Of a DNA stretch of 64,000 nt, positions 61,714 to 64,000 are shown piece after piece. Numbering within the stretch: the first letter of the stretch is position 1; each line of letters starts with the position of its first letter. Both the position numbers and the translations under genes were made by a program. The notes below the pieces were generated by a model. That model was given only the letters and a program-made list of their open reading frames with translations, did no database searches and was not told the DNA's origin. The DNA is from Pseudobdellovibrionaceae bacterium. Its GTDB lineage: Bacteria; Bdellovibrionota; Bdellovibrionia; Bdellovibrionales; Bdellovibrionaceae. The stretch is taken from NCBI GenBank assembly GCA_016719575.1, contig JADJYV010000008.1, positions 15,440 through 79,439 of the forward strand. Direction: 5' to 3'.

Positions 61714-62883
61714 TTAAAAATTCACTTTTGCTGCAATCGCGACTGTATAATAATTCAACTTTTCAATTGGAGTTCCGCCGCTAGACTGAAGTCCAGAAGT
61801 AAATACTGGCTGGTTGTTAACTCGGCTAGTAAGATTAAACATATAACGATACTCAAATCCAAGAGCGAAGTTCTTGTTAAACTCCAAATCCACTCCTGCC
61901 GTCACACCCAAGTCAAGGGCGTGTGAATCACTAGACGATCCCTTATACGGTTGGCCCATGTAAACCACATCACGCCAAGTATATTTACGATAACTATAAG
62001 AAGTAAGACCACCTAACACTGGACGAACCATGCCTGACATCAACTGATACTTAGCCGCAATGGCTCCCTGATATTGATCAGCATCAATTAACTTCGGATA
62101 ATAGGGATTGTATGTCGCGTCCACTTGTTCAATCTCGTAATTTGAGAATAAAAATGATCCCTCGACAACCAAAGAGTCAAATTTAGTTCCCATCGCAGCA
62201 CCGAACGAATAATTGCCGCGCACATTTGCGACGTCAGGATAATCACTCACGCCGGCAAGACCACTGAAGTAATAAGCTGATCGCCGCTTTTCAACAACTT
62301 CCTCGGCAACTTTTGCGCGAAGTTCGTCACGAACGATATCACGCAGATTTTCCTTGGGCTCCACAGGCTGCACAACAATTGGCTGTGCTGGCGCAGGCTG
62401 CGTTGACACAACAGTTACATTTGAATTTGTTTGTTCCAACTTATTGCCAAATAAAAGTTCCGCACGACGCTTCTCATCTTCGAGACGGGATTGCTCGAGC
62501 TTCTCGACGATCTTTTGCTCAGTTTGAATCTCAGCATCTTGACGAGACTTTCTCATGACTTCAGCCCGCGACTCCACCAGGGGCGTAGACTCAATAATGG
62601 CAACAGGCTGCTTTTGCACCTGAGATGTCTGAGTCTGAGCATTGGCATTTGAAGTCGGCGTTGCCTGATTCAATATATAGATAGGCTGAGCCCCATGATT
62701 AGCGGTTCCAGCTACGGAACCTGACACGGGAGCGGGAGTCGCAACAGCACTGCCGGCCTGCTTGTTTGCGTACATTTGGTCAAGCTCTTGATCGACTTCC
62801 GCATCGATATTCGCCCCTTGAGCCAAACTCAAATTTGGAGCGACCATCAAAGCCGCAAGGACAGAGAAATAGATACTTTTCAT
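61714..62883 (-). CDS. Outer-membrane beta-barrel protein with a coiled or low-complexity periplasmic N-region
   Basis: ATG 62883 gives signal peptide MKSIYFSVLAALMVAPNLSLAQG. The C-terminus ...YYTVAIAAKVNF carries the OMP terminal-Phe signature. Confidence 0.7.
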   Translation of the reverse strand: MKSIYFSVLAALMVAPNLSLAQGANIDAEVDQELDQMYANKQAGSAVATPAPVSGSVAGTANHGAQPIYILNQATPTSNANAQTQTSQVQKQPVAIIESTPLVESRAEVMRKSRQDAEIQTEQKIVEKLEQSRLEDEKRRAELLFGNKLEQTNSNVTVVSTQPAPAQPIVVQPVEPKENLRDIVRDELRAKVAEEVVEKRRSAYYFSGLAGVSDYPDVANVRGNYSFGAAMGTKFDSLVVEGSFLFSNYEIEQVDATYNPYYPKLIDADQYQGAIAAKYQLMSGMVRPVLGGLTSYSYRKYTWRDVVYMGQPYKGSSSDSHALDLGVTAGVDLEFNKNFALGFEYRYMFNLTSRVNNQPVFTSGLQSSGGTPIEKLNYYTVAIAAKVNF

Positions 62884-63340
62884 AAGAGTCTCCTCATCAT
62901 TCAACTTTTGATCACTCACGGGTAAGAGCAACGCCTGTGCCAAAAAGACCCCAGCTCCTGCCCTCTGTCTAACTAGTTGATATTATGGGATGATCAACAA
63001 AGAGACCCGGAGTGCATTTCGGCCCCAAAATATCGATTTTGACTGCTTTTCAGACAATCACGTGAAAGGATTTCAAAAAATCACAAAAGAATCAGCAATC
63101 CGGGGTCAGCTGAATTTCAGGCAACTGCATATAAAAAGACGTAATCTGTATTCCTAGCCCTAAATTATGATTAAACAGCCTAATCTTAGCGTAGATACTC
63201 TACTTATTGGGACTTATCACCCCTAAATTCCTATCCTTTTTATAAGGTTCGCTTTTTTTCCTTGATATAAATCGAACACGACTCAATAGTCCGTTTCGCG
63301 AAAAAAATTAAATAATATTCAATCACTTGTAGAGGTTCAG

Positions 63341-64000
63341 ATGTTTAATAAAATTGTCATTGTCGTCTCAGCATTTTGTTTTATCAACAATATCCCGAGG
63401 TACGCTCTAGCCACCTCGTCTTCAAGCAAACCTAGCGGCAGCAATCATAGCGGCAGCAATCATAGCGGCAGCAATCATAGCGGCAGCAATCATAGCGGCA
63501 GCAATCATGGCGGCAGCAATCATGGCGGCAGCAATCATGGCGGCAGCAATCATGGCGGCAGCAATCATGGCGGCAGCAATCATGGCGGCAGCAATCATGG
63601 CGGCAGCAATCATGGCGGCAGCAATCATGGCGGCAGCAATCATGGCGGCAGCAATCATGGCGGCAGCAACAACGGCGGCGGCAACAACGGCGGCGGCAAC
63701 AACGGCGGCGGCAACAACGGCGGCGGCAACAACGGCGGCGGCAACAACGGCGGCGGCAACAACGGCGGCGGCAACAACGGCGGCGGCAACAACGGCGGCG
63801 GCAACAATGGCGGCGGCAACAATGGCGGCGGCAACAATGGCGGCGGCAACAATGGCGGCGGCAACAATGGTGGCGGCAACAATGGTGGCGGCAACAATGG
63901 TGGCGGCAACAATGGCGGCGGCAACAATGGTGGCGGCAACAATGGTGGCGGCAACAATGGCGGCGGCAACAATGGCGGCGGCAACAATGGCGGCGGCAAC
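63341..64000 (+). CDS. Secreted pentapeptide-repeat (SGSNH/GGSNH/GGGNN) protein, 5' part; open at the right edge
   Basis: Absent from the ORF track because no stop lies in the window. ATG 63341 is preceded by AGAGG. MFNKIVIVVSAFCFINNIPRYALA/TSSSSKP is a signal peptide, and the 15-bp repeat array follows in frame. Confidence 0.6.
   Translation, partial: MFNKIVIVVSAFCFINNIPRYALATSSSSKPSGSNHSGSNHSGSNHSGSNHSGSNHGGSNHGGSNHGGSNHGGSNHGGSNHGGSNHGGSNHGGSNHGGSNHGGSNHGGSNNGGGNNGGGNNGGGNNGGGNNGGGNNGGGNNGGGNNGGGNNGGGNNGGGNNGGGNNGGGNNGGGNNGGGNNGGGNNGGGNNGGGNNGGGNNGGGNNGGGNNGGGNNGGGN
63434..64000 (+). repeat. Perfect 15-bp tandem repeat array, at least 37 units, continuing past the window edge
   Basis: Units are arranged in blocks:
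- 5 x agcggcagcaatcat (63434-63508).
- 10 x ggcggcagcaatcat (63509-63658).
- 1 x ggcggcagcaacaac (63659-63673).
- 8 x ggcggcggcaacaac (63674-63793).
- 13 x ggYggcggcaacaat (63794-63988), plus a partial unit. Confidence 0.98.

Follow-up and report, generated by a model that had tools for sequence, protein, structure and literature searches.

Described repeat systems

Low-complexity Gly-rich segments with a period of 5 residues are common in secreted bacterial proteins. The gene considered here, which encodes repeats of this type, lies at the end of a 64,000-nucleotide (nt) stretch of DNA from an uncultured Pseudobdellovibrionaceae bacterium (assembly GCA_016719575.1, contig JADJYV010000008.1, positions 15,440 to 79,439 of the forward strand). 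This whole stretch is called the window, and positions are counted from its first letter. On the plus strand, a start codon and a predicted signal peptide run in frame into an array of 15-nt units, which code for pentapeptides of His, Ser, Gly and Asn and continue to the end of the window. The gene is probably a real, lineage-specific orphan, and its product would be an exported, disordered repeat protein consisting of two polar blocks. It belongs to a known kind, the hypervariable low-complexity repeat proteins of the cell envelope, and as such is not surprising in itself.

Units nearly identical to those of the window protein are found in period-5 linkers of the form G3-[N/D]-X, for which there is no curated family. 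Examples are P0071 (NNGGG x10), P0043 (NSGGG), P0064 (NNGGS/NNGGG), P0075 (GNHGG/GNQGG), P0128 (GGGDN), P0041 (GGNDG), P0053, and P0073. These linkers are perfect tandem repeats at the DNA level and are located after export signals or between domains. Their flanks and domains are not shared with the window protein, suggesting convergence of composition rather than homology. In addition, the window protein differs from them in that its array directly follows the signal peptide, runs to 37 units or more, and joins a His block to an Asn block.

The pentapeptide-repeat proteins (PF00805/PF13576/PF13599; Qnr, MfpA, Rfr) also have a strict 5-residue period with a small residue followed by Asn (A-N-L versus S-N-H in the window protein). 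Both are described as having Gly in the remaining positions, and these proteins are among the best phmmer matches. However, their central residue is Leu or Phe, while that of the window protein is His or Asn. Thus, the latter has no hydrophobic core; AlphaFold2 models it as coil.

The prion octarepeat (PHGGGWGQ) is likewise a flexible, extracellular, N-terminal tandem repeat, in which His is followed by Gly-Gly(-Ser) and whose repeat number is polymorphic. Its Cu2+ site is HGGGW, with the third Gly replaced by Ser in mouse (HGGSW); Cu2+ is bound by the His imidazole and the amides of the next two Gly residues, and at low occupancy several His residues share one Cu2+ (PMC2663819). This chemistry could apply to (HGGSN)10 of the window protein. 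Yet the period is 8 rather than 5, the window protein contains no Trp or Gln (the comparison also lists no Pro there), and the ancestries are unrelated, making this an analogy of mechanism only.

Low-complexity, His-containing repeats are also shared with the His-rich metal proteins: Helicobacter Hpn and Hpn-like; the tails of SlyD, HypB, and UreE; CopI; and mammalian HRG (GHHPH). HRG is also built on a 5-residue unit. These proteins differ from the window protein in being far richer in His and in often having Cys, Met, Glu, or Asp partners, and they are mostly cytoplasmic, although the His-rich N-terminus of CopI is periplasmic (PMC13308877). They show no sequence relationship to the window protein, in whose promoter region no metal-regulatory motif scored above shuffled controls.

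Mycobacterial PE_PGRS and PPE-MPTR proteins are dominated by Gly and Asn, are encoded by GC-rich repetitive DNA, are exported, and are polymorphic among strains; PF01469 (Pentapeptide_2) represents MPTR. The Gly/Asn dominance, the GC-rich repeats, the (predicted) export, and the strain polymorphism are common to the window protein. It differs in having no PE/PPE domain, a predicted Sec rather than type VII route, a perfect 15-nt repeat, no Ala, and no PF01469 match.

The repeat array and its reading frame

The features of the gene, and the open reading frames (ORFs) opposite to it, are as follows.

63331-63335, plus strand: Shine-Dalgarno-like AGAGG, 5 nt 5' of the ATG; the same in all strains compared
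63341-63343, plus strand: start codon ATG, read from the sequence
63341..63412, plus strand: ATG and predicted Sec (signal peptidase I) signal peptide MFNKIVIVVSAFCFINNIPRYALA, residues 1-24; from the translation, with predicted cleavage between ALA and TSS
63413..63433, plus strand: Ser-rich junction TSSSSKP between signal peptide and array; from the translation
63434..63658, plus strand: histidine block, (SGSNH)5 (GGSNH)10; from the unit table, 15 His spaced exactly 5 residues, ten units reading H-G-G-S-N
63659..64000, plus strand: Gly/Asn block, (GGSNN)1 (GGGNN)21 + GGGN; from the unit table, open to the window end, 22 Asn-Gly junctions
63422-63658, minus strand: ORF MIAAA..., from the ORF list
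63655-63999, minus strand: ORF PPLLPPP..., from the ORF list

The array (63434-64000) comprises 37 full 15-nt units plus 12 nt and is free of gaps and of insertions or deletions (indels). SGSNH is encoded by AGCGGCAGCAATCAT (five copies), GGSNH by GGCGGCAGCAATCAT (ten copies), and GGSNN by GGCGGCAGCAACAAC (one copy). The 21 GGGNN units are made of three synonymous DNA variants, GGCGGCGGCAACAAC (eight copies), GGCGGCGGCAACAAT (eight copies), and GGTGGCGGCAACAAT (five copies), whose differences are confined to third codon positions of the plus frame. This frame contains no stop from 63290 to 64000, and the predicted product includes the peptide TSSSSKPSGSNH.... The sequence contains everything that the original prediction had claimed for the array, namely (SGSNH)5 (GGSNH)10 (GGSNN)1 (GGGNN)21+ in frame and stop-free to the window end. 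Tandem Repeats Finder reports the array with a period of 15, 37.7 copies, 98% matches, and a score of 684; its other rows in the 64 kb score 60.

By itself, the array cannot settle the coding frame, because 5 of the 6 frames are open over most of it. A start codon, ribosome-binding site, and N-terminus are present in the plus frame only. Furthermore, an independent gene caller placed the same plus-strand ORF at contig ends in 4 of 7 Logan contigs bearing the gene start (L015/L028, L016, L017, and L025). It had been noted earlier that the ORF list lacks the plus-strand ORF and holds two minus-strand ORFs instead. This is correct, and arises because the ORF lister by design omits ORFs that reach past the end of the source.

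Gene start and signal peptide

Within the predicted signal peptide, the n-region carries Lys4, the h-region IVIVVSAFCFI has a best 10-residue Kyte-Doolittle mean of 3.07, and A-L-A occupies residues 22-24 (positions -3 to -1). The sequence therefore has the charged n-region, the h-region of at least 10 residues, and the small residues at -3/-1 of a Sec type I signal peptide. A crude filter (a heuristic, not SignalP) was also applied, which selects for a basic residue in positions 1-6, the absence of acidic residues from positions 1-20, a Kyte-Doolittle mean of at least 2.4 over some 10-residue window, and small residues at -3/-1. The N-terminus of the repeat gene passes, as do 9 of the 845 ATG-initiated open stretches elsewhere in the window (~1%), all 9 of which resemble genuine exported proteins or lipoproteins. 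In the AlphaFold2 model, a helix spans residues 2-15, within the signal peptide. The possibility of a lipoprotein was rejected: there is no lipobox, [LVI][ASTVI][GAS]C, and the sole Cys (C13), which follows S-A-F, is part of the h-region.

Thus, an ATG at 63341 with an AGAGG Shine-Dalgarno sequence does open a classical signal peptide, as originally proposed, and by the filter it is of the canonical Sec type. As part of the best explanation of the whole gene, the product is likely to be exported across the inner membrane by way of this Sec signal peptide and cleaved after Ala24. The visible mature chain would then have 196 residues, of which at least 189 belong to the array, beginning 7 residues past the predicted cleavage.

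The array in other strains

Copies of the gene in other strains were found by looking up exact matches to NusA and to proteins clustered with the neighboring barrel protein (described below). The gene start is present on seven independent Logan short-read contigs from seven runs, and the gene occurs in samples of at least five Sequence Read Archive (SRA) accession series. Samples in which this species is represented include the SRR11809815-19, SRR17331997-99, SRR26992859-62, and SRR30303755 series. The translation of the region before the array is identical in all seven contigs. When four strains are aligned, the intergenic region is ~99% identical, with five single-nucleotide polymorphism (SNP) columns in 457 bp, and there are 0 SNPs in the 93 nt preceding the array. 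Each of the seven contigs ends 21-56 nt into the array, which is the expected behavior of an assembly with k=31 when it meets runs of identical units.

The start of the array differs among strains, and it does so in frame. SGSNH is present five times in the window; six contigs have it once, followed by GGSNH; and L014 has SGSSH, SGSSH, SGSNH, SGS.... The properties of a coding variable-number tandem repeat (VNTR) are therefore present: perfect tandem units, a length that is a multiple of 3, a position inside an ORF, and unit variation among strains at the array start. The array is real and polymorphic, varying in frame. Phase variation was considered and rejected, as every gain or loss of a 15-nt unit keeps the frame and the promoter region is free of simple repeats; the strain differences are variation in length and sequence, not on/off variation. 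The 3' end of the gene was not reached in the Logan contigs, the 12 barrel-anchored relatives, a scan of metagenome contigs with the N-terminus, or two scans of viral contigs.

Homology

A word-indexed search of 5.8 billion clustered proteins with the repeat protein returned 0 matches. With phmmer, an exhaustive comparison with 1.84 billion representatives yielded 1143 matches, none covering residues 1-7 and all confined to the repeats; we take them to be compositional, not homologous. The matches inspected form groups without relationship to each other: some are true pentapeptide-repeat proteins (ANLSG, TNLAG...), others are secreted proteins or lipoproteins in which a Gly-rich linker has a period of 5, and the remainder are other low-complexity proteins. 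No family was found for the repeat protein in Pfam at E <= 10 or in NCBIfam at E <= 1; as a control, P0059 matches PF00805 at 1.7e-44. Among PDB sequences there was one marginal match, the designed beta-solenoid 4yfo (E = 0.2). A literature search found nothing about this repeat or about His-rich Bdellovibrio proteins.

These searches agree with the original prediction that the repeat family is an unrecognized one, there being no Pfam or NCBIfam family and 0 homologues among the 5.8 billion clustered proteins. Its designation as a pentapeptide-repeat protein is apt for the 5-residue period but not for membership in the A(D/N)LXX family, since no Pfam pentapeptide model matches at E <= 10. The repeat protein is an orphan, with repeats convergent with a widespread, uncurated kind of polar linker.

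Several families were considered and rejected. In the case of the PF00805 clan, 15 units have His and 22 have Asn at the center, and the mature part contains no Leu, Phe, Ile, Val, or Met. Because the mature part has no hydrophobic residue, the core of a pentapeptide-repeat beta-helix would not be expected to form. A functional amyloid or curli-type repeat has neither a Pfam match at E <= 10 nor strands in the AlphaFold2 model to commend it. A polyglycine-II or antifreeze-like bundle needs a 3-residue period, where the period here is 5, and an RTX beta-roll needs a 9-residue unit with a hydrophobic position. As for Hpn, HypB, SlyD, UreE, CopI, and the ZnuA loop, there is no Pfam or NCBIfam match and no homologue to suggest a relationship.

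The metagenome-contig scan with the N-terminus gave a sole match, which is unrelated: a complete ORF of 143 amino acids (aa) at 1517-1948 on the plus strand of L013 (WPCK01277211.1). It encodes a signal peptide followed by G/S/H-rich repeats, including HSGSNHSG, with a DNA period of 15/30 nt. However, the contig is GC-rich and unrelated, and the protein is short, contains Tyr and Arg (HYHGG), and has no likeness to the window protein outside the repeat, making it an analogue and not a homologue. Its repeats are rich in Gly, His, Ser, and Tyr (…HYHSGSNHSGHYHGGHNHSGHYHGG…), and no Pfam or NCBIfam family matches it. Small secreted proteins rich in G and H may be a recurring type that is yet to be described.

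Composition and predicted structure

The 196 visible residues of the mature part are 47% G, 31% N, 13% S, and 8% H, together with one Lys, one Thr, one Pro, and no hydrophobic residue. Uncharged polar tracts of this kind are disordered yet compact and tend to self-associate. The strongest turn-forming residues are Gly and Asn, and no dipeptide deamidates faster than Asn-Gly. In a single-sequence AlphaFold2 model, the chain beyond the signal helix is coil without strands; the predicted local distance difference test (pLDDT) score is below 50 at residues 31-220 and averages 41, although a model of this type cannot exclude a fold, including a right-handed quadrilateral beta-helix. Together, the signal-peptide filter, the polar composition, and the low-confidence coil of the model support the earlier suggestion of an exported, disordered protein.

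Proposed product and its possible functions

After export and cleavage, the mature chain (at least 196 residues), having no hydrophobic core, would stay disordered. Its first part would be a 75-residue His ladder with one His per five residues, mostly as H-G-G-S-N, and its second part a polar Gly3-Asn2 tract of at least 110 residues. The array evolves as whole 15-nt units are gained or lost, by slippage or unequal recombination, which preserves the frame in every case.

We are most confident in placing the protein in the periplasm or outside the cell, where it would form either a flexible, hydrophilic polymer or, if a larger protein continues past the window, the N-terminal stalk of that protein. 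With less confidence, the His ladder, which is the only chemically reactive feature, may provide a pH-dependent charge, becoming cationic below ~pH 6.5, and multivalent binding of divalent metals (Cu2+, Ni2+, Zn2+) by analogy with the octarepeat. A metal-binding role of the His block is, on this analogy, a tentative and rather doubtful suggestion. The adhesive or matrix role that was originally put forward likewise stays hypothetical. The proposal in which we have the least confidence is that the G3N2 tract might act as a spacer or a gel-forming polar tract.

In a more elaborate version, conceivable by the same analogy but improbable, a predatory bacterium would export the protein as a multivalent sponge or buffer for metal ions, and unit gain and loss would tune its capacity between strains. 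Each of the 15 H-(G/S)-G-S-N units would then bind one Cu2+ (or Ni2+/Zn2+) at high load, with one ion per several His at low load. At the cell surface or inside prey, the G3N2 tail, whose 22 Asn-Gly junctions would deamidate fast, would make up a hydrated gel or a tether that slowly acidifies.

Alternative explanations

Several observations weigh against a real gene for an exported, disordered, two-block protein with a possible metal-related role. The case is built on sequence data, and since the window stops short of the C-terminus, what is visible may be no more than a linker. The N-terminus of the repeat protein is absent from both public protein collections, though the neighboring protein MBK9322787.1 is present; therefore, the public record apparently carries no product for the gene. 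The His density, at 8% overall and 20% in the His block, is far under that of dedicated His-rich metal proteins. No conserved metal-homeostasis gene adjoins the repeat gene, and in 62884-63340 the best matches to Fur, Zur, NikR, CueR-like, and sigma-28 boxes, sought with consensus motifs from other phyla, are no better than those in shuffled sequences. The gene caller took the opposite strand on L014, the codon-usage score is 0.215 for the plus frame versus 0.674, the best of the six, for minus frame 0, and a hand comparison of changes among unit variants (3 synonymous and 3 non-synonymous in the plus frame; 2 and 4 in minus frame 0) is not decisive. The L014 gene call and the codon score, together with the fact that minus frame 0 is open from 64000 to 63424, would fit a gene that enters the window on the minus strand, encodes an Ala/Val/Ile/Met repeat (...IVAAA/VVAAA...MIAAA x15...RFA and a stop), and ends at 63424, with the plus-strand ORF as a mirror artefact. 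We find this hardly credible. The product would be a purely hydrophobic chain of more than 190 residues, without an export signal, that ends three residues past the array; there is no terminator-like site behind the end of the ORF; and it would not account for the ATG, the ribosome-binding site, and the signal peptide found in frame directly before the array on the plus strand. The high score of minus frame 0 arises because Ala, Val, and Ile are common residues, and codon usage is uninformative about the coding frame. The original prediction had reversed the roles, calling the minus-strand ORFs the mirror artefacts. These ORFs exist and are plausibly artefacts, although the minus frame is open from the window end to 63424 and codon usage does not discriminate against it.

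If the plus strand codes, the length or block order of the array could still be an error of the assembly, of the long-read consensus or by collapse or expansion, and the true gene much shorter. The window comes from a metagenome-assembled genome (MAG), short-read assemblies never cross the array, and independent confirmation covers its first 21-56 nt, the full length being known from one assembly. But the array is without indels and has a clean block structure in a single frame, the short-read contigs break just as expected when several identical units follow, and the different alleles at the array start indicate a truly variable repeat; we judge such an error very unlikely. The gene might instead be a young orphan ORF with a runaway minisatellite, maybe expressed, whose repeat content is neutral slippage "junk" without a selected function. 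This is consistent with its absence from all related genomes examined, its variable, island-prone location (tRNA-Leu and integrase in relatives), its lack of homologues, and the long blocks of identical units, which point to very recent expansion. Yet the four aligned strains do not differ in gene start, signal peptide, or ribosome-binding site, despite the five intergenic SNP columns (numbers too small for statistics), the seven contigs agree in the pre-array translation, every observed variant keeps the frame, and samples from at least five SRA series contain the gene, so that a functionless repeat seems unlikely to us. A reading that is not exclusive of the others makes the array an N-terminal tether or stalk: the exported protein would be larger, with a folded functional or anchoring domain beyond the window, the repeats would do no more than provide spacing and flexibility, and the His residues would have no special role. 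There are precedents among the period-5 linkers: (NNGGG)10 lies between two unassigned regions in P0071; (GGGDN)n or (GGNDG)n comes straight after the signal sequence, with a C-terminal region behind it, in the lipoproteins P0128 and P0041; P0064, an RsgI-like anti-sigma factor, has an (NNGGS/NNGGG) tail; and in P0053, GGGNN/GGGNS lies ahead of a C-terminal hydrophobic anchor. The repeat ORF, moreover, is still open at 64000. On the other hand, an array of at least 189 residues that starts so soon after the cleavage site is already long, nothing is visible beyond 64000, and a pure spacer would not need the sharp two-block design of 15 His units followed by a His-free tract. We regard a stalk as quite possible, though we lean away from it. 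Thus, an exported, disordered protein of two polar blocks, encoded by a lineage-specific gene, is the reading that we favor.

Upstream region

The following features lie between the repeat gene and its neighbor or define that neighbor.

63262..63290, plus strand: sigma-70-like promoter candidate, TTGATA, 17 nt, AATAGT; from a consensus scan, 9/12 positions
63082..63340, plus strand: lineage-specific AT-rich upstream region with the promoter-like site and the ribosome-binding site; from the L005 alignment, GC 0.355
61714..62883, minus strand: outer-membrane beta-barrel protein of 389 aa, the divergent neighbor, given as context only; Pfam OMP_b-brl, 2e-07

The gene was originally said to be preceded by an AT-rich non-coding region of ~400 bp. 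As measured, this region is 457 bp long (62884-63340) and has a GC content of 0.39 versus 0.45 for the window, falling to 0.355 in the last 259 bp. Promoter-like sites number 2 in the region versus 1.1 expected by chance, and the evidence for the candidate is accordingly weak. In L014, the candidate -10 hexamer (63285-63290) is AATAAT rather than AATAGT, and a further SNP lies 11 nt downstream; the hexamer change could make the promoter differ in strength from strain to strain. The inverted repeats found between the two genes are imperfect and short.

An intergenic ORF of 55 aa, MINKETRSAF... (62990-63157, plus strand), mostly overlaps a stretch that is conserved with L005 upstream of the barrel gene. 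The ORF is probably non-coding; the conservation more likely reflects the promoter or 5' region of the barrel gene. On the minus strand of the array, Rfam gives weak matches to isrG and MIR7526 at 63424-63673 and 63840-63922, with 22-32 bits versus gathering scores of 100-110. Being so far under the gathering scores, these were rejected as RNA genes and are considered artefacts of the repeat.

The locus and its relatives

The genes next to the repeat gene encode the beta-barrel outer-membrane protein, a 210-aa protein, an acetyltransferase, and the products of rimP, nusA, and infB. The conserved part of the rimP-nusA-infB block ends with the barrel gene, by which the locus was anchored in relatives. 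Its product is 100% identical to MBK9322787.1 from a Bdellovibrionaceae MAG, and orthologues with 28-87% identity are present in 12 genomes (Bdellovibrio sp. HCB337 and Pseudobdellovibrionaceae and Bdellovibrionales MAGs). The relatives were located with the barrel protein, and the repeat gene is absent from all related genomes examined. In the closest relative locus, L005 (JAMIQD010000143.1; barrel 87% identical), the alignment holds to ~63081 and then drops to background. The same spot is occupied by a 217-219-aa barrel and tRNA-Leu(CAA) in L001 and L002, by an integrase and small genes in L003, by a gene for a 629-aa protein in L004, and by a tRNA-Leu-like sequence and an integrase-like ORF in L005; the 219-aa barrel of L001/L002 is not conserved. 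From the loss of the L005 alignment and the presence of other genes in relatives, it follows that the repeat gene and ~260 bp upstream are, as judged by these comparisons, lineage-specific and located at a variable, island-prone spot.

tRNA-Leu(CAA) is located beside the barrel gene in L001 (8812-8898), L002 (8683-8769), and L008 (9481-9567); no tRNA gene is present anywhere in the 64-kb window. A tyrosine integrase, closely related in the two genomes, is found in L003 (3266-4660) and L005 (~1-340), and a query with the L003 integrase gave 42 homologues at E <= 1e-30, with identities up to 92%. These elements mark the barrel-adjacent spot as an integration hot spot. On the reverse strand of the L005 locus, at ~410-990, a tRNA-Leu(CAA)-like 5' half (gccctgtggtggaattggtagacgcgctggactca) occurs twice; after the second copy come ~300 nt and then a tRNA 3' half ending ...gggagttcgattctccccggggccacca. 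This split sequence looks like an intron-split or insertion-disrupted tRNA-Leu beside the integrase-like ORF; for the split region, ARAGORN reports no tRNA, and Rfam gives nothing at gathering thresholds.

In the relatives' loci that were scanned, Tandem Repeats Finder detected no comparable 15-nt array besides the short-read copies of the same gene. The top score there, 731, belongs to a 99-nt repeat (x5.2) at 6568-7076 of L012, from a Bdellovibrionales MAG chromosome. Another such chromosome, L011, has a perfect 8-nt repeat (GTAACGAT x29.6) at 2498-2734, which could be phase-variable or non-coding, because a unit of 8 nt is not a multiple of 3.

Significance

Genes of this kind are systematically under-represented, because short-read assemblies break within them, as in 7 of 7 runs here, and because public protein collections hold no product. 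If expressed, the repeat protein would be a natural and clean case of a fully polar, exported protein in which two repeat blocks, the His ladder and the Gly3Asn2 tract, change in unit number between strains of one uncultured, Bdellovibrio-like species. It would also provide a useful strain marker, as a VNTR, and a simple model for metal- or pH-responsive disordered polymers.

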